Both the position numbers and the translations under genes were made by a program. Below the pieces are notes generated by a model. The model ran no database searches. It was not told where the DNA came from and worked only from the letters and a program-made list of their open reading frames with translations. From the NCBI GenBank assembly GCA_005388305.1, contig GCA_005388305.1_4327.1: 27,210 nt of DNA; one strand, written 5' to 3'. Source of the stretch: Escherichia coli (GTDB lineage: Bacteria; Pseudomonadota; Gammaproteobacteria; Enterobacterales; Enterobacteriaceae). Shown one piece after another: positions 8,699-26,975 of the stretch; position 1 is the first letter of the stretch, and each line of letters begins with the position of its first letter.

Positions 8699-8830
8699 TC
8701 ATTCCAGCACCCACAGATAAATTGCGATGAATATACCCAATACGGCAACCATCATGCCGTATTGGCCTTCGCGACAGTAGACACCGGCAGCAAATCCCGT
8801 CAGTACCGCGATAATCAGTTTACTTAGCAT
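8699..8830 (-). CDS. putative small hydrophobic membrane peptide, 43 aa (below ORF-track cutoff)
   Basis: ATG at 8830 overlaps the 3' end of the polymerase gene by 11 nt. Translation MLSKLIIAVLTGFAAGVYCREGQYGMMVAVLGIFIAIYLWVLE has two hydrophobic stretches. No independent support. Confidence 0.2.
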   Translation of the reverse strand: MLSKLIIAVLTGFAAGVYCREGQYGMMVAVLGIFIAIYLWVLE

Positions 8831-11099
8831 AACGGTGCACCTCTTCCCCGGCCCATGTTAGCGGGAATCCTTCAGCCCATTCAGGTAATGAGCATAACAG
8901 GTCACCCATCTCTTTAACCGTGTACTCCGGCGTGTCTGGCGTTTCGGCGACACATTCATCGTGTACGTGGAGTACAATTGGGTAGCCCGCTGCCTCGACC
9001 GTCAGGAGTCCGTTAACCAGTAAATCACGGCACAACGCCTGGATGATGTTTTCACACAATTTTCCGCCGTGTGTGTACAAAGTTGTCCACTGGCGGGTGG
9101 TCTGATTTTCGCCCTGGTATTTAATGCGAACGTTAGTTGTTACGCGCCCGTCCTCGTCAGTCTCTTTAGTGACGCTTAAACCTATACCAGGGTAGGACAT
9201 AATGCGCCCGGACGGCAACTCCACGCACAACCACCAACCCGGCACAAAGTTACCCTGTCTGTCTTTCTCTTTAGTACGCCATATGCGAATAGCTCTGTCG
9301 CCGTTAAGGCGGACTCTGGCCCCCGCCCAAAACTCTCGTCCCGGATTTCTGATTGCGGCAATTACCGAATCCTTAAGGTCGTTCCAGAATTTCACTGTTT
9401 CCGGATGGGCCTCCCGCCACATGCGCTTGATAGCATCGCAGGTGCGCCAGACTTCCTTTGGCAGCACATAGGAGGCCCGTTCGTCTTTTTTACCGGGTTT
9501 TGGGGGTCGCTTAGCCTCCTGAATCCGCGCCCATTCATAACCTCTGGCAGTAGCCGCCCATATATGATCAGGGAATGTCCCCCGCATTGTCTCCGTCATT
9601 TTAAANNNNNNNNNNNNNNNNNNNNNNNNNNNNNNNNNNNNNNNNNNNNNNNNNNNGCCGCCCTCATAGCCGAGGCCAAGCTCGCAACATTTCCCGACCT
9701 GTCGTAGGTCTTTACGGGTGGCTTTCAGTTCTATGGGGTCCATACCAAACATCTTACCAGCTGTGGCGCAATAAATATCAATCCCCGCGCGGAACGTATC
9801 AAGGGCGGACGTCTCCCCCGCCGTCCAGGCTAACCCACGCCCTTCCACGTTCGAGTAGTCGGCAACGAGCAACTTATTGCCTTTTTCCGGGATAATGCAA
9901 CTGCGGACAGTTGAGGCTGTTAGTTTAGATACGTCGAAACGGCGATGCGCCCGACCTTTTAACAGCAAATTGATGCCGAACGATAAGGGGTTAAGCCTGC
10001 GGTTCCAGTCTTCGTCGGACTCCCACGGCTGGCGTACAAGTTTCTTTTCCTCGTTAGTCGGGTCGTCATGGTAGTACCCGCGCGACAGGTTCTGCGGTTG
10101 GAACCCTTTACCCGCAAATCGTAAAGTGCGCTTTGCCCCACCGTACTGGATGCAACCGCGACGGCGTCCGTCTTTGGACCGTCCTAGCAGTAGCGGTTTG
10201 TATTTTGTTGACGCCGTGGAGGCCGCGCCGAGGCGCATCTCAATGATTGTGCGTGCATCGTCCGGTAAGTCGTCGTCCTCTAGCAAGCCTTCGAGCGTTG
10301 CTTTCTGCGCATTATAAATATTGTAGGCCGGTGCCAGTTCCCGGAGGATTGGCAGAAAATCTTTGCCAGTTAGTTTCCCTCCGAATTTCGCGCGGGCCTC
10401 GTTTTTTAGCTCTTGCTTGTGGCGTTCCACTGCCGCTACCGCCGCCTCAGCAAGAGCCGTGTCAACAAAGAAGCCTCGGTCGTTAATTAACTGGTCCAGT
10501 TCCAGTACACGGTCTTCGAACTCGGAGTTACCCCAACGCGGCAACTTATGGAACACTTCACGCATCGCGGTGATGTCGCTAACGGCGTACTTGATGAACA
10601 GCGCCCACTCATCCGGGTGCGTTTCAGCAGTGTAGCGGCGAATTTTGTAGTTCTTCGGCGTCGGTTTAGAGAAACGCTGAATAAGCGCTTTGCCTCGTTT
10701 GTCTTTCGCGTTGTCTGCAGACACGCCAAGCACTTCGCACAATGCGTCGAGTGAACCCGGCAGCGCGTGACGAAACGCCCAAATCATCGTATCAATGGTG
10801 TTGCTTACCGGAATATCAAAGCCCCAGCAGTGTTTCATGATGAGCCTGTCGAACATTGAGCCGTTGTGCCACACCATCTTGATGCGACTGTTTGGCTTAA
10901 CCAGGCGGCGCAGTGCGCGGTGCAAATCTCCCGGCATGTCGCTGCCGTCGGTGCAATCCCATACCTGTACAGGCTCGTCGTCAAAAGCGTATGTGCAGAT
11001 AAGCACTTCGGTAGTTGGATGTTCGGCGTAAGCGTAGGAGCCGACTTTCTTCAAATCGGCTTCGGAGAATGTTTCAAAGTCTAAGAACAGGTAACTCAT
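8820..11099 (-). CDS. family A DNA polymerase with 3'-5' exonuclease domain, 759 aa (interrupted by an assembly gap)
   Basis: Exo I LFLDFETFS, Exo II WHNGSMFDRL, Exo III YAVSDITAM, pol motif A LLVADYSNVEGRGLAW, motif B RKDLRQVGKCCELGLGYEGG, motif C VLHVHDECV. A run of 17 X residues in the translation corresponds to the N run. Confidence 0.9.
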   Translation of the reverse strand: MSYLFLDFETFSEADLKKVGSYAYAEHPTTEVLICTYAFDDEPVQVWDCTDGSDMPGDLHRALRRLVKPNSRIKMVWHNGSMFDRLIMKHCWGFDIPVSNTIDTMIWAFRHALPGSLDALCEVLGVSADNAKDKRGKALIQRFSKPTPKNYKIRRYTAETHPDEWALFIKYAVSDITAMREVFHKLPRWGNSEFEDRVLELDQLINDRGFFVDTALAEAAVAAVERHKQELKNEARAKFGGKLTGKDFLPILRELAPAYNIYNAQKATLEGLLEDDDLPDDARTIIEMRLGAASTASTKYKPLLLGRSKDGRRRGCIQYGGAKRTLRFAGKGFQPQNLSRGYYHDDPTNEEKKLVRQPWESDEDWNRRLNPLSFGINLLLKGRAHRRFDVSKLTASTVRSCIIPEKGNKLLVADYSNVEGRGLAWTAGETSALDTFRAGIDIYCATAGKMFGMDPIELKATRKDLRQVGKCCELGLGYEGGXXXXXXXXXXXXXXXXXFKMTETMRGTFPDHIWAATARGYEWARIQEAKRPPKPGKKDERASYVLPKEVWRTCDAIKRMWREAHPETVKFWNDLKDSVIAAIRNPGREFWAGARVRLNGDRAIRIWRTKEKDRQGNFVPGWWLCVELPSGRIMSYPGIGLSVTKETDEDGRVTTNVRIKYQGENQTTRQWTTLYTHGGKLCENIIQALCRDLLVNGLLTVEAAGYPIVLHVHDECVAETPDTPEYTVKEMGDLLCSLPEWAEGFPLTWAGEEVHRYAK
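9606..9656. other. assembly gap (51 consecutive N) inside the DNA polymerase gene
   Basis: Directly visible run of n characters; its length is a multiple of 3 so the frame is formally preserved, but the true length and sequence are unknown. Confidence 0.95.
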
Positions 11100-17260: not shown

Positions 17261-17429
17261 CTTTCACGTTCTCCTTAATCCACGCCTCCACGGTAGCTCG
17301 GTCAAACGTACCTGGCTGCCGGTAGCCGTTAATAACACGACAACACTCCGGGAACTTACCGGACCGAAGCCAGCGATTAAGAGTCATAGGGGAAACTCCG
17401 ATTAAGTCTGCTACTTCTTTCTGTGTCAT
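17250..17429 (-). CDS. AlpA/excisionase-like helix-turn-helix DNA-binding protein, ~59 aa
   Basis: MTQKEVADLIGVSPMTLNRWLRSGKFP is a typical HTH_17/AlpA-type motif. Start set at the internal ATG 17429 (AGAGGG RBS 7 nt upstream); the ORF-track start 17459 would lie inside the putative promoter. Confidence 0.6.
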   Translation of the reverse strand: MTQKEVADLIGVSPMTLNRWLRSGKFPECCRVINGYRQPGTFDRATVEAWIKENVKDAN

Positions 17430-17458
17430 TTTACGCACCCTCTTTACCAAGTGAAACA

Positions 17459-17487
17459 ACTATAACACCTACAATAACTAAACACAA
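17459..17487 (-). promoter_or_regulatory. putative sigma70-like promoter of the leftward operon (TTGTGT-17-TATAGT on the - strand) within a degenerate copy of the conserved element
   Basis: + strand CAACTATAACACCTACAATAACTAAACACAACC; - strand -10 TATAGT (17464-17459), -35 TTGTGT (17487-17482). Confidence 0.35.
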
Positions 17488-17492
17488 CCTAT

Positions 17493-17519
17493 TGACAAAA
17501 TAAAATGTAGCTGTAAAAT
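17493..17519 (+). promoter_or_regulatory. putative rightward sigma70-like promoter (TTGACA-15-TAAAAT), back-to-back with the leftward promoter
   Basis: TTGACA at 17493-17498, TAAAAT at 17514-17519; the 15-bp spacer is shorter than optimal. Confidence 0.35.
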
Positions 17520-17752
17520 CAACGTATCGAAGGACCTTAGTTCAGAATTACTTAGAAACATTATTCTTAAGTCTCGGGTACTTAAAGCCCCGCCTTAAAG
17601 CGGGGCGCTAAACAGTACTCTTGGTAACGTTAGTATCTAAGTTTCCTCAAAGTAACAGCAAGTGGCAAGAAAGCCCCCGTCTATTTAAATTTTACCCTCC
17701 TTCATAAGTACCTGATAATTAAAAGTTTCTATAGTTGCCGTGAGTGAGGTAG

Positions 17753-20166: not shown

Positions 20167-20352
20167 ATGGTACAGAAACTATATGTTCCGTATACAGAAG
20201 AATCCGCGTCAGATTGGTCACCGAATTGTGTAGTTATGTATGAAGACTACGCGGAACTGGAACGCAAACTTCGTAACTTCGCCGACCAGGTATTGTATGT
20301 ACCTTGTTCGAAAGTTACCGAAGAAATGGCGATGGAGATTCTCGGCATATGA
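20167..20352 (+). CDS. hypothetical protein, 61 aa
   Basis: ATG 20167 with AGGAGA RBS. Confidence 0.5.
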   Translation: MVQKLYVPYTEESASDWSPNCVVMYEDYAELERKLRNFADQVLYVPCSKVTEEMAMEILGI

Positions 20353-20630
20353 GCCTTGCAACTGACATCCTGAAACGAAGCGGCCTTGCGCCGCTGTCAC
20401 CAAAAGTTAAGACGCGAGCGCGTAACGCAACTTACCGCGAACTGGCAGAACGGCGCAAAGCTATCCGCGCCTGTGGATTCCAGAACGGGAAGGCTGTTAA
20501 TCTCGGTGAGTTCAAGACAAAGGAACGCGCCGATATCGCTAATAGGCTATTTAATTACTGGAAATCGCTGGGGTACGATGATATTCCAACGAAACCGCAG
20601 AGACGACAATACATCTGGCGCCATAAATAA
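20349..20630 (+). CDS. hypothetical basic protein, possibly DNA-binding (AP2-like segment), 93 aa
   Basis: ATG 20349 in ATGA overlap; the segment NGKAVNLGEFKTKERADIANRLFNYW loosely resembles the second half of an AP2-type DNA-binding domain (weak). Confidence 0.45.
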   Translation: MSLATDILKRSGLAPLSPKVKTRARNATYRELAERRKAIRACGFQNGKAVNLGEFKTKERADIANRLFNYWKSLGYDDIPTKPQRRQYIWRHK

Positions 20631-20660
20631 ACCGTTATTAGGATAATTCCTACCCGTGGT

Positions 20661-20700
20661 ATCCTCCAGTTACTGCATACTTAATACGCACCTGGAGGAT
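20661..20700 (+). promoter_or_regulatory. stem-loop sequestering the holin ribosome-binding site
   Basis: 9-bp inverted repeat ATCCTCCAG (20661-20669) / CTGGAGGAT (20692-20700); the 3' arm contains the GGAGGA RBS of the holin (TTG start at 20706). Confidence 0.4.
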
Positions 20701-20705
20701 TCATC

Positions 20706-21014
20706 TTGGATAAATTTACTGAAACAGTGACAGGCTGGCTTCTGGCTGCCGCACTAGCTGGCGGGGTAATAGGCCTACGGCAACACAAAGCCACTATTAC
20801 TGGTCCTGTCGATGCTCTCTGTTTTCTCGCCACTGGATTTGCGTGCGCCGTATTCGGTGCACCTCTTGCCGCTCAATGGTTCGGTATCGCAGGTGAACGC
20901 GAAATAGCGGGCCTTGGGTTCATCATTGCTATTCTCTGGATGCCGATTTATTCCCGTCTCTCTGGCATTGTCGCCGGAGAATACATCGCACGTCGCGGAG
21001 GTGGCAATGAATGA
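20706..21014 (+). CDS. holin, 102 aa (TTG start)
   Basis: Small protein with three hydrophobic segments and a charged C-terminus (ARRGGGNE), directly upstream of and overlapping the other lysis genes; GGAGGA RBS 8 nt before TTG. Confidence 0.6.
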   Translation: MDKFTETVTGWLLAAALAGGVIGLRQHKATITGPVDALCFLATGFACAVFGAPLAAQWFGIAGEREIAGLGFIIAILWMPIYSRLSGIVAGEYIARRGGGNE

Positions 21015-21279
21015 GTTATTCTGGTTTGGCGGTATGCTGGCAATTGGGGGCACATCGCTGTTTAATGTGTATCACCTGAGTGTTGACGACGGGCTTTTCG
21101 GTCGGGTGCTCTATATCCTGACCGCTATCGTCTGCGCCGCTGGATGTATCCACCTGTTACAGGGCAGCATGTCACCGACGCTGCCTGAGACATTAATCAC
21201 ATTAGTTGCGCTGCGACAGATTCGCCAGTCGTGGCTGCTATACGGAGGATATAAGCGTGTCTCGAAATATTTCAGATAA
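21007..21279 (+). CDS. lysis-associated membrane protein (putative second holin/antiholin), 90 aa
   Basis: ATG 21007 overlaps the holin 3' end by 8 nt; two hydrophobic segments (FWFGGMLAIGGTSLF, VLYILTAIVCAAGCIHLL). Confidence 0.5.
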   Translation: MNELFWFGGMLAIGGTSLFNVYHLSVDDGLFGRVLYILTAIVCAAGCIHLLQGSMSPTLPETLITLVALRQIRQSWLLYGGYKRVSKYFR

Positions 21280-21745
21280 TGGATTGCATTTCACCGCCGC
21301 GTTCGAGGGATTCCGCGGAACTGCGTATCGCGCTACGCCGGACGAGAAGTACCTGACTATTGGGTACGGAAGTTATGGCACACACGTTAAAGCGGGGCAG
21401 ACCATCACGCCAGGGCAAGGCCTCCTGTTACTGAATCGCGATATGGCTAAGGCTGTAGCTGCTGTTGACGCAGCAGCACACCATTCGCTTACACAGGCAC
21501 AGTTCGATGCGGTGTGTGACCTGGTGTATAACGCAGGTGCTGGCGTGATTGCGTCTACTACGGGCACAGGCAAGGCACTGCGTTCTGGTGATACCGCAAC
21601 ACTGCGGGCTAAGCTGGCGCTGTTCATCAACCAGAACGGCAAACCACTACTTGGCCTGCGTCGCCGTACAGCCGGGCGTCTGGCGCTGTTCGATGGTAAA
21701 CCGTGGCAAGAGGCAGAGGCTATTGGGCGTGCGGTGAAAGGTTGA
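21257..21745 (+). CDS. endolysin, lysozyme (GH24-like), ~162 aa
   Basis: N-terminal catalytic region FEGFRGTAYRATPDEKYLTIGYG (Glu…Asp…Thr spacing as in T4/lambda-type lysozymes); GTG start at 21257 preceded by GGAGGA; a strong terminator follows. Confidence 0.75.
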   Translation: MSRNISDNGLHFTAAFEGFRGTAYRATPDEKYLTIGYGSYGTHVKAGQTITPGQGLLLLNRDMAKAVAAVDAAAHHSLTQAQFDAVCDLVYNAGAGVIASTTGTGKALRSGDTATLRAKLALFINQNGKPLLGLRRRTAGRLALFDGKPWQEAEAIGRAVKG

Positions 21746-21810
21746 CACCTAAGATTAATCCGACGATACTTAAATCACCTCCTGCTCCATCCCTCTGCTC
21801 TCCAGTTTTA

Positions 21811-21842
21811 TCCCGGCCCTGACCCAGCCGGGATTTTTTTTT
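21811..21842 (+). terminator. rho-independent terminator after the lysis cassette
   Basis: Stem TCCCGGC / GCCGGGA with 10-nt loop, followed by a run of 9 T. Confidence 0.75.
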
Positions 21843-21864: not shown

Positions 21865-21893
21865 TTGACTATTACCATCGACCCTATTATATT
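21865..21893 (+). promoter_or_regulatory. sigma70-like promoter (TTGACT-17-TATATT) within a variant of the conserved element
   Basis: -35 TTGACT 21865-21870, -10 TATATT 21888-21893; flanked by duplicated CCATCGAC (21875-21882 and 21897-21904) and CTATTA motifs; RBS GGAG and ATG 21927 follow. Confidence 0.5.
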
Positions 21894-25448: not shown

Positions 25449-26933
25449 ATGGTTTCCGCAAACATTAACGCAGGGCAAGGGCAGAACGTTAAAACCCGCC
25501 ACCGCCAGTACGAAGAGTATTTCCCTAAGTGGCAGAAGGTGCGACATGCGCTTTCTGGCGACCTGACATCGTATCTACGTGACGTCAGTAGGAACGAGCC
25601 GGACCCGGTTTACGGTCGCCAGCGTCAGGCTGAATACGAAGCGGGGGCAATTTGCTACAACTTCACCAAGCGAACGCTTTCAGGCATGGTCGGCAGCGTA
25701 ATGCGCAAAGACCCCGAGATGATTATTCCGTCTCAGATGGAATACCTGACCACTAACTGTGACGGGTCGGGCGTTGGCCTGTGGCAGCACGCACAGGATA
25801 CTCTGTATGAGATTGATGCTGTTGGTCGCGGTGGCTTGCTGGTTGACGCCCCCGCGGTAGAAGTAGCTACCATGGCAGAGCAAAACGAGGGTTTACTAAA
25901 CCCAACAATCGCTTTCTACACCGCAGAGAATATCATCAACTGGCGTCTCCAGCGCGTCGGGTCTGTTAATCGTGTGGTTATGGTTGTATTGCGTGAGGAA
26001 TACGAGTACACCGATGGCGCGGATGAGTTCAGCCCCAACTACGGCGAGCAATACCGCGTCCTTGATATTTTCGAAGGCCAGTATCGCCAGCGTCTGTACC
26101 GCTTTAACCAGAAAGGTGCACTGATGGAAGGTGGCTATATCGAAATATTCCCGAAACTCGGTAATATTCCGGTCGGGGTGATTCCGTTCACATTCATTGG
26201 TGCAGGGAATAACGACTCAACCCCTGACGATGCACCTTTGCTGCCGTTGGCTGAACTTAATATCGGGCATTTCCGTAACAGCGCGGACAATGAGGAGTCC
26301 AGCTTCGTTGTGGGCCAGCCAACCTTGTTCATTGCGCCGGGTGAGAACATGAGCATGGCTCAGTGGAAAGAAGCTAACCCTCACGGAGTGCGCATGGGGT
26401 CGCGTTCAGGCCATAACATCGGTTACGGCGGCAATGCGTTTCTGGTCCAGGCCGGTGAGAACAACCTAGCCAAGCAGAACATGTTGGATAAAGAGAACCA
26501 GGCAATCCAGATTGGTGCACAGCTTATTACCCCGACGCAGCAAATCACCGCGGAATCGGCACGCCTGCAACGCGGCGCTGATACGTCCGTTATGGCAACA
26601 ATCGCACGTAACGTAAGCATGGCGTATACCGATGCGTTGCGCTGGGTCGCGGGTATGCTTGGGATTAGCGACAGCACTGAAATTGAGTTCAAACTGAACA
26701 TGGAGTTCTTCCTGCAACCAATGACCGCCCAGGACCGCGCTCAGTGGATGGCGGACATTAACGCGGGCCTGTTACCGGCTACCGCTTACTATGCTGCGTT
26801 GCGTAAGGCGGGGGTAACTGACTGGACAGACGAGGACATTCAGAACGCTATCGAGGATGCGCCGCTGCCGTTAGATGCTGCCGCTCCGGTAGCAGGAGAG
26901 ATTCCGCAGTCGGCGCGGCAACAACAGGAGTAA
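25449..26933 (+). CDS. portal protein (putative), 494 aa
   Basis: Size and position immediately downstream of the large terminase subunit; AAGAGGA RBS identical to the tailspike's; no motif-level confirmation. Confidence 0.6.
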   Translation: MVSANINAGQGQNVKTRHRQYEEYFPKWQKVRHALSGDLTSYLRDVSRNEPDPVYGRQRQAEYEAGAICYNFTKRTLSGMVGSVMRKDPEMIIPSQMEYLTTNCDGSGVGLWQHAQDTLYEIDAVGRGGLLVDAPAVEVATMAEQNEGLLNPTIAFYTAENIINWRLQRVGSVNRVVMVVLREEYEYTDGADEFSPNYGEQYRVLDIFEGQYRQRLYRFNQKGALMEGGYIEIFPKLGNIPVGVIPFTFIGAGNNDSTPDDAPLLPLAELNIGHFRNSADNEESSFVVGQPTLFIAPGENMSMAQWKEANPHGVRMGSRSGHNIGYGGNAFLVQAGENNLAKQNMLDKENQAIQIGAQLITPTQQITAESARLQRGADTSVMATIARNVSMAYTDALRWVAGMLGISDSTEIEFKLNMEFFLQPMTAQDRAQWMADINAGLLPATAYYAALRKAGVTDWTDEDIQNAIEDAPLPLDAAAPVAGEIPQSARQQQE

Positions 26934-26947
26934 GTAAAAAAAAAACT

Positions 26948-26975
26948 AAGGCCCCATAACAGGGCCTTAGTTTTT
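26948..26975. terminator. bidirectional rho-independent terminator between the portal gene and the convergent small gene
   Basis: AAGGCCC-CATAACA-GGGCCTT hairpin with an A-run upstream and TTTTT downstream. Confidence 0.6.

Follow-up and report, generated by a model that had tools for sequence, protein, structure and literature searches.

In bacteriophage T4, long transcripts of the genes e, soc, 49 and I-TevI fold in such a way that the ribosome-binding site is hidden (PMC3014915, section 29; McPheeters et al. 1986, PMC311593), and a promoter located in the DNA for the 5' strand of the hairpin gives short, unfolded transcripts that are translated (PMC3014915). We analyzed a stretch of 27,210 nucleotides (nt) of an Escherichia coli assembly (GCA_005388305.1, contig GCA_005388305.1_4327.1), called the window below, which is a Kagunavirus-like E. 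coli siphophage (subfamily Guernseyvirinae). The Shine-Dalgarno (SD) sequence of its first holin gene, holin 1, lies in a conserved hairpin whose 5' arm is overlapped by a promoter-like motif. This element is real and ancient, and we give about an even chance to the reading in which the hairpin serves, at the RNA level and in cis, as a gate or insulator where the lysis module begins on its 5' side, of the type known from T4 gene e.

As for T4 gene e, the gene is a lysis gene downstream of earlier transcription, the SD and start region would be in a hairpin of the long transcripts, and the arrangement is conserved among related phages. The gated gene of T4 is the endolysin gene, whereas here it would be the holin gene. 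T4 uses gp55-dependent late promoters (TATAAATA) while the motif of the window looks like an extended -10 element of the host sigma-70 type; temporal control is therefore not self-evident, unlike in T4. A further difference is that the hairpin is also an intrinsic terminator in two sister lineages of the window, and the evidence presented here comes from sequence analysis alone.

The S gene of phage lambda is likewise a holin gene with a stem-loop over its SD and a translation rate that feeds into lysis timing. However, the stem-loop of S partitions two starts located two codons apart (S107 and S105, for antiholin and holin), whereas the window has a single start and its candidate partner is encoded by a separate gene. 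The only nearby start-like codon is the next one, a GTG at codon 8, which has no SD and is not conserved, and a dual-start holin/antiholin of the lambda type was thus excluded. The homologous element of Salmonella phage vB_SenS-Ent1 (Jerseyvirus; NC_019539.1, 39696-39735) is found at the same position and overlaps the holin start. It is annotated solely as a terminator, with neither SD sequestration nor an overlapping promoter annotated, and the version of the window differs from it by a 22-nt loop and a degenerate U-tract that fall below the usual terminator criteria. Our literature search found no publication describing the hairpin element in these phages. The element and the gene that follows it consist of:

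20661..20669, + strand: 5' arm (anti-SD) ATCCTCCAG of a perfect 9-bp inverted repeat
20670..20691, + strand: loop TTACTGCATACTTAATACGCAC, 22 nt, A/U-rich, occurring once in the window
20692..20700, + strand: 3' arm CTGGAGGAT, which holds the SD GGAGGA at 20694-20699
20701..20708, + strand: spacer TCATC and TTG start codon (TTG at 20706-20708)
20706..21014, + strand: holin 1, 102 amino acids (aa), TTG start, three hydrophobic segments, phrog_2359 'holin'

The arms are 100% complementary and form a stem of 9 bp, five of which are G-C pairs. The original prediction had placed a GGAGGA ribosome-binding site inside the 3' arm of a perfect 9-bp repeat, and its coordinates and sequence proved exact; GGAGGA is located 6 nt ahead of the TTG at 20706. 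The predicted free energy (dG) of the hairpin alone is -14.2 kcal/mol. Folding in contexts of 40 to 301 nt, including read-through contexts of 155 to 301 nt, gave a probability of 0.002 to 0.01 that the SD is unpaired, and the SD sits in the helix that dominates the folding ensemble, as is the case for an SD-sequestering structure. In Bas72, the closest sequenced Kagunavirus, the holin SD is the third most sequestered among 82 genes. The 57-nt element had a z score of -2.37, with 7 of 200 shuffles folding equally well. Perfect 9-bp inverted repeats with loops of at most 30 nt gave 14 k-mer hits (6 loci) in the window versus 3.1 +/- 2.2 in dinucleotide shuffles; the 9-bp repeat alone is unremarkable, because such repeats are not beyond chance in 27 kb, and the significance of the hairpin derives from its position on the SD and from its conservation. 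An Rfam scan of positions 20300-21300 with E values up to 1 returned no family.

Three other structural candidates were rejected. A small upstream hairpin (TAGGA/TCCTA, 20639-20652) is broken by the common variant G20641A, and an RNA thermometer and an RNase III site were dropped, the stem being too stable for the former and too short for the latter.

Conservation within the genus was determined on 98 Kagunavirus-type loci, which gave 53 unique sequences. Nucleotide diversity (pi) was 0.344 at third codon positions of the holin gene, 0.004 in each of the 5' and 3' arms, 0.005 in the spacer and start codon, and 0.023 in the 22-nt loop, so that the block extending from the hairpin to the start codon is about 15-80 times less diverse than the synonymous sites of the holin gene. 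The larger conserved unit is:

20636..20745, + strand: conserved regulatory block with a -35-like region, a -10-like motif, the hairpin, the SD, the start codon and the first ~13 codons

Among cultured phages, 108 of 121 records had a 115-nt block with at least 95% identity; identity over the surrounding 1.5 kb was 80-90% in 120 of 125. The entropy minimum is located at 20665-20724, and the 5' edge of the block stays at ~20636 irrespective of the upstream gene, which codes for an HslV-like peptidase in some Kagunaviruses. The sole variant of the 5' arm, A20668G, keeps a G.U pair, and that of the 3' arm, T20693C, produces an A.C mismatch in one relative. Substitutions at the loop edge extend the stem to 11 bp in the L005 type (dG of -21.5 versus -17.3 kcal/mol, z of -3.6) and to 13-14 bp in the type of Salmonella phage LSPA1 (-23.0 versus -17.3, z of -5.2). 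A scan of bacterial and archaeal genomes for prophage copies found nothing. In phage vB_EcoS_fTaEco03 (MT711528.1, L003), a tandem duplication of ~299 bp (about 820-1130 and 1119-1430) spans the 3' end of the upstream gene, the entire hairpin and the first ~37 holin codons. This phage thus has two copies of the hairpin and promoter-like block, and its first copy of the gene is a truncated 43-aa open reading frame (ORF) annotated as 'putative antiholin/holin class II protein'.

Dhillonvirus has a first lysis gene with 47-50% identity to holin 1, and homologous genes are present in Jerseyvirus, Cornellvirus and Serratia phage Otaku (hhalign probability of 97.7%, E of 1.4e-12, from residue 1 to the end); holin 2, the gene that follows, is homologous across the same phage groups. 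A hairpin whose 3' arm carries the only SD-like purines is located just before the holin start in Dhillonvirus, the L092 type, Jerseyvirus, Cornellvirus and Otaku. The hairpins of these relatives have dG values of -9.6 to -21 kcal/mol, z scores of -5 to -8 in independent folds, and arm sequences that differ from those of the window:

Dhillonvirus: AGTCCCAGTGAG / CTTACTGGGACT, stem followed by TTTTTT-ATG
Jerseyvirus: AATCTCCGAAGG / CTTTCGGAGATT, stem followed by TTTTATT-GTG
Cornellvirus: CTCCGTAGTG / CATTACGGAG, stem followed by 11 nt and then ATG
Otaku (Serratia phage): GCCTCGG / CTGAGGC, stem followed by TTCAC-ATG

The SD and the anti-SD change jointly (GGAGGA/UCCUCC, GGGA/UCCC, GGGG/CCCC, GGAG/CUCC and GAGG/CCUC). 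Since MAFFT misplaces the 3' arms across genera, we used an alignment of the arms anchored on the SD core. In this alignment 83.9% of the cells pair, compared with 64.2 +/- 2.4 in shuffles (0 of 500), 10 of the 12 pairs vary on both sides, and the covariation score is 0.568 compared with 0.231. As far as an alignment fitted to structure can indicate, the pairing has been kept in evolution across these lineages. The out-of-sample set consisted of eight further metagenomic relatives with 47-59% protein identity, and in seven of the eight the SD-like purines are paired, in a hairpin or in a long, imperfect helix.

These comparisons also bear on the idea that the inverted repeat acts as DNA, as an operator for a phage or host repressor of the lysis promoter, RNA folding being irrelevant. 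The 5' arm does overlap the -10-like motif, a place where repressors act, the whole block is conserved, loop included, and relatives encode small transcriptional regulators. Nevertheless, loops range from 3 to 22 nt across lineages, which is incompatible with the half-site geometry of one protein, the arm sequences differ and always do so as SD/anti-SD pairs, changes compatible with G.U pairing are tolerated (A20668G, and several G.U pairs in relatives), and U-tracts follow the stem in two lineages. We therefore regard an operator as very improbable.

The architecture is not shared by more distant homologues (Pectobacterium phage Wc4-1, L135-L137). One of these, L137, a metagenomic relative of the Wc4-1 holin, has at ~460-510 a terminator-like hairpin (AGGGTCT/AGACCCT) followed by GGGTATAATACA-ATG, and a perfect TATAAT 3 nt ahead of the start codon, which hints that, in this unrelated phage group, the holin mRNA has no leader or a very short one. 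In the Cornellvirus-like contigs (L172/L173 and L152), L152 and L172 share an identical 85-nt upstream segment but have different holins (74% and 66% identity to SETP7); their regulatory block is better conserved than the gene, as in Kagunavirus. In L176 (501-521), the architecture of the lineage is rearranged: the start chosen by the gene caller adds MGYPPD before the conserved MDNKY, and in the added stretch GGGGTATCCTCCC is a repeat of the Kagunavirus 5'-arm sequence TATCCTCC, placed inside or beside the coding start.

The sequences that follow the stem were compared for their resemblance to terminators. In the window, the tail formed by T20700, the spacer and the start codon reads TTCATCTT, an interrupted run with 5 T of 8, that is, a degenerate U-tract. 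Its counterpart is TTTTTT in Dhillonvirus and TTTTTTATT in Jerseyvirus, and there is no U-tract in Cornellvirus and Otaku. The Dhillonvirus phage HK578 has a canonical intrinsic terminator (12 bp and a T-run) called by the terminator scan, and 5-9 nt separate the end of the canonical terminator from the start codon in Dhillonvirus and Jerseyvirus, so that there is no room for a promoter downstream of it. Because the U-tract is confined to these two groups, SD pairing is the common denominator and termination would be an add-on in some lineages.

The hairpin could alternatively be a terminator or attenuator that closes the upstream operon, the lysis genes being expressed by leaky or factor-dependent read-through (antitermination) and the overlap with the SD being a by-product of a G+C-rich stem. 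The HK578 terminator, the Ent1 annotation ('putative rho-independent terminator') and the partial U-tract TTCATCTT retained in the window all agree with this explanation. However, Cornellvirus and Otaku have no U-tract and the window has a degenerate one, while SD pairing is found in every hairpin-bearing lineage, and the SD and anti-SD co-vary. The stem-loop of a terminator has a G+C-rich stem and a loop of about 3-8 nt; the 22-nt loop of the window is outside this usual geometry and the scan makes no call there. No Q-like antiterminator was identified in a search that was not exhaustive. We consider this explanation unlikely.

The 5' arm of the hairpin coincides with a promoter-like motif:

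20657..20665, + strand: extended -10-like motif TGgTATCCT (TG at 20657-20658, hexamer TATCCT at 20660-20665)
20638..20643, + strand: weak -35-like hexamer TTAGGA (TTAAGA in many relatives), 16 nt 5' of the -10-like hexamer

The -10-like motif covers the first five bases of the 5' arm. The -35-like TTAGGA, with 3-4 matches of 6, is the least certain part of this putative promoter. Position 20659, the 'n' of the extended motif, is the only common variable column (G in 31 sequences, C in 22). The motifs of the different groups are:

Kagunavirus: TGgTATCCT
Dhillonvirus: TGaTATAGT
Jerseyvirus: TG(c/t)TAATCT
Cornellvirus: TG(a/c/t)TAA(C/T)CT
Otaku: AGtTATACT

G-14, T-12, A-11 and T-7 are the most important bases of extended -10 promoters. 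These four bases are invariant in the 15 tabulated sequences, in which position -13 and hexamer positions 3-5 vary; the table leaves out L176, whose motif is unclear (TAATTT, no G at -14). Among the seven hairpin-bearing further relatives, six have a TAnnnT hexamer with a G at -14 that overlaps or abuts the 5' strand, L176 being the exception. Most lineages with TGn have poor -35 hexamers, and most lineages without a T at -15 combine TATACT with TTGCAx or TTGCCC at 17-18 nt; in L175, TGn is accompanied by a -35-like hexamer, TTGCGG. At the level of sequence, this pattern corresponds to the classic trade-off between promoter elements. Alternative -10 candidates in the loop (CATACT, CTTAAT and TAATAC) are poor matches with no suitable -35 or TG, and none was called by the scan.

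The geometry of the motif is also shared. Across lineages the hexamer ends 4-12 nt ahead of the end of the 5' arm, so that a start site at +7 would remove all of the anti-SD bases. Homology between Kagunavirus and Dhillonvirus upstream of the gene begins exactly at CGTGnTAT, the upstream genes being unrelated. When the 5' end of the RNA was placed in silico at 20668-20674, the probability that the SD is unpaired was 0.18-0.40; for the shortened RNAs of the Kagunavirus types, SD accessibility rose from 0.002 to 0.18-0.59, and it rose in most lineages. L182, which has a divergent gene next to the cassette, lacks the hairpin; its SD is open (0.65), and a sigma-70 promoter (TTGCAA-18-TATACT) was called at the homologous site. 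L182 can thus be seen as a natural control, with a promoter and without the hairpin where there is no co-directional upstream gene.

We infer from these data that the -10-like motif may be an active promoter and that the hairpin would act as a gate in the following way. Read-through transcripts from the upstream small-gene block would carry both arms and fold, the SD would be occluded and the holin would not be translated; in Dhillonvirus and Jerseyvirus, the same hairpin with its U-tract would also terminate such transcripts. The cassette would have its own sigma-70-type promoter, with the extended -10 over the 5' arm. RNA starting ~7 nt past the hexamer (~20671-20673) would have no anti-SD arm and would be a translatable mRNA, the 22-nt loop region becoming the 5' end of the lysis mRNA; in HK578, the gate model puts the primary 5' end within CCCAGTGAG. 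The TTG codon would further lower the output from the mRNA of the cassette and thereby help set the lysis time.

That TTG is the holin start had been proposed from the sequence, and this assignment holds. TTG 20706 is the first canonical start following the in-frame stop, it is invariant in the 53 unique relatives and it aligns with the ATG or GTG that begins the homologues (M-D-K versus M-D-K or M-D-D-K). Codons 5 and 7 of the holin gene show synonymous variation among relatives. The GTG at codon 8 was rejected as the true or a second start; besides lacking an SD, it is replaced by GTA in one relative and has no counterpart in the Dhillonvirus homologues, and the homologues align from residue 1. 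In Bas72, TTG starts 3 of 82 genes and non-ATG codons start 10 of 82, while TTG or GTG is the start in 7 of the 15 tabulated holin-family sequences, or in 6 of 14 distinct lineages since the window and LSPA1 are both Kagunavirus-type. The apparent enrichment of weak start codons in the holin family fits selection for low holin output, and TTG probably lowers that of the window.

Occlusion of the SD could also operate as a uniform translational throttle, in which all holin mRNA carries both arms, initiation takes place only on transient opening of the stem and, together with TTG, this sets the lysis time; in a variant, ribosomes perhaps bind in standby on the A/U-rich 22-nt loop. We hold this to be possible, if rather unlikely. 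In its favor, both the occluded SD and the TTG start are real and conserved, the holin family shows an enrichment of non-ATG starts, the conserved single-stranded loop could serve as a standby site, and in lambda the holin translation rate sets the lysis time while an upstream stem-loop governs access to the SD (bioRxiv 10.1101/2025.05.14.654169). A throttle does not account for the conservation of the G-14/T-12/A-11/T-7 motif in a fixed geometry, for the fact that L182, with no co-directional upstream gene, has lost the hairpin, or for the full terminators that abut the holin start in Dhillonvirus and Jerseyvirus. With a stability of -14 to -24 kcal/mol, moreover, the stems would cut initiation by orders of magnitude rather than tune it: de Smit and van Duin reportedly related hairpin stability to translation in 1990, and stems such as these would nearly abolish initiation.

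The suggestion that both the hairpin and the start codon throttle holin synthesis was consequently retained in part. The weak start codon fits low output, but the hairpin is too stable for a mild, uniform throttle, and the comparative data point to a transcript-specific gate. The gate is favored because of the -10-like element over the 5' arm, the terminator version of the hairpin in Dhillonvirus and Jerseyvirus, and its absence in L182.

Several observations weigh against the gate. TATCCT matches the consensus at 4 of 6 positions and is accompanied by a weak -35, and the promoter scan makes no call there. We estimate that TGnTAnnnT, with five specified bases, is expected by chance about once per kb per strand, and the weight of the motif comes from its conservation among sequences that are related and not independent. 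The window holds a single copy of the -10-like motif; CGTGnTATnnT and the sequence of the loop also occur once each, which is at chance level, and there is no repeated late-promoter motif. The invariant CGTG could, for its part, pair weakly with the spacer or the start codon as an outer helix. Truncation of the RNA in silico fails to open the SD in L179 and L180 and opens it weakly in L178 and Otaku. The stem shows no statistically meaningful covariation inside the genus Kagunavirus, 10 of 13 pairs being invariable and shuffles giving equal values, because it is almost invariant; between genera, the alignment of the arms was anchored on each lineage's own hairpin and leans towards structure, and the sequences are related. 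The sole Kagunavirus transcriptome found has gene-level resolution, and a constitutive sigma-70 promoter alone does not explain late timing.

Nor does the gate model account for how strongly the 22-nt loop is conserved. It may be that, in the near-invariant 75-nt block, the loop and the flanking CG form a binding or sensing site for a factor encoded by the phage or the host, or a sigma-70 pause or antitermination site, and that the factor times the switch between hairpin, terminator and promoter, as a lysis clock shared by Guernseyvirinae and Dhillonvirus; we consider this quite improbable.

The gate model depends on transcription that enters the lysis module from upstream, and the window has two features of interest in this respect:

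17492..17519, + strand: strong sigma-70-type promoter-like site TTGACA-16-TAAAAT (11/12)
20349..20630, + strand: upstream co-directional small gene, phrog_9632

The promoter-like site is ~3 kb upstream of the lysis cassette, at the head of the rightward small-gene block that leads into it, and is presumed to be the source of the read-through transcripts. No terminator-like site was predicted on the + strand between 17492-17519 and 20660. The start codon of the small gene at 20349..20630 is uncertain, its ORF being open from 20304 with a PHROG match that begins at residue 16, and the gene is not homologous to the Dhillonvirus gene at the same position. Positions 17428-17719 of the window, which separate the replication genes of the minus strand from the small-gene block of the plus strand, contain a cluster of divergent promoter-like sites, TTGACA-16-TAAAAT among them, and are probably the early control region. 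Two further strong sigma-70-type promoter-like sites (10/12 each), at 21742-21770 (TTGACA-17-GATACT) and 21865-21893 (TTGACT-17-TATATT), are located right after the endolysin gene and ahead of the small genes preceding terminase, and the lysis cassette is therefore bracketed by promoter-like regions. At 26941-26975, just past an ORF ending at 26933, a 16-bp stem (AAAAACTAAGGCCC/GGGCCTTAGTTTTT) with A and T runs on its flanks resembles an intrinsic terminator that works in both directions. A run of 51 N bases, masked or unresolved sequence, occupies 9606-9656, in the long minus-strand ORF 8820-11099.

The lysis region DNA is at most ~90% identical to any sequenced Kagunavirus. Downstream of holin 1, the cassette continues with:

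21007..21279, + strand: holin 2 or antiholin candidate, 90 aa, ATG start, phrog_2508, two hydrophobic segments
21257..21745, + strand: endolysin, GH24 phage lysozyme, PF00959, GTG start, 23-nt overlap with holin 2

Holin 1 matches phrog_2359 with an E value of 3.7e-29 and is located two genes 5' of the PF00959 lysozyme gene. It has the characteristics of a holin, that is, a small membrane protein with transmembrane segments, a charged C-terminal tail and an endolysin neighbor. No Pfam or NCBIfam model covers holin 1 or holin 2, so their role is assigned from PHROG annotation, hydropathy and position. The same three lysis genes are annotated in relatives at equal offsets. A second membrane protein overlapping the 3' end of the holin gene had also been predicted, and it is indeed present at 21007-21279: the holin 2 gene overlaps holin 1 by 8 nt (ATGAATGA), its ATG lying over the holin 1 stop, which makes translational coupling probable. 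The phrog_2508 family is conserved, separate from holin 1 and always found paired with it; the pairing and the overlap suggest translational coupling at a fixed ratio. Both genes are called 'putative holin/antiholin' in the Shemara record; the two may be a holin and an antiholin, in either order, or may act as a two-component holin.

The start of the endolysin is most likely the GTG at 21257, with an SD GGAGGA at 21246-21251, in agreement with the annotation of the fTaEco phages, while the Bas72 endolysin (L001, 1531-1923) is annotated as a shorter ORF from an internal ATG. The three lysis genes of the window thus use three different start codons, TTG, ATG and GTG. On reading, the endolysin sequence shows no evident membrane segment at its N-terminus. 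A 39-aa ORF over the 3' end of the endolysin gene (21703-21822) is annotated as hypothetical, with no apparent membrane association. In the whole genome of Bas72 (L094, 5487-5982), Rz-like spanin genes are found among the head genes, distant from the holin-endolysin cassette.

Lysis timing sets burst size and phage fitness, and phages of Kagunavirus, Dhillonvirus and Jerseyvirus are widely isolated, with many of the papers that we found proposing their use in therapy or biocontrol. For annotators, a 'terminator' placed before these holins also hides a ribosome-binding site and probably a promoter. For engineers, cargo inserted upstream of the lysis cassette, or an intergenic deletion, may change lysis. 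If the gate reading is true, one compact cis-element would keep a lethal membrane protein silent in the several hundred sequenced phages with this cassette, directly downstream of strongly transcribed early genes and without a dedicated late sigma factor.

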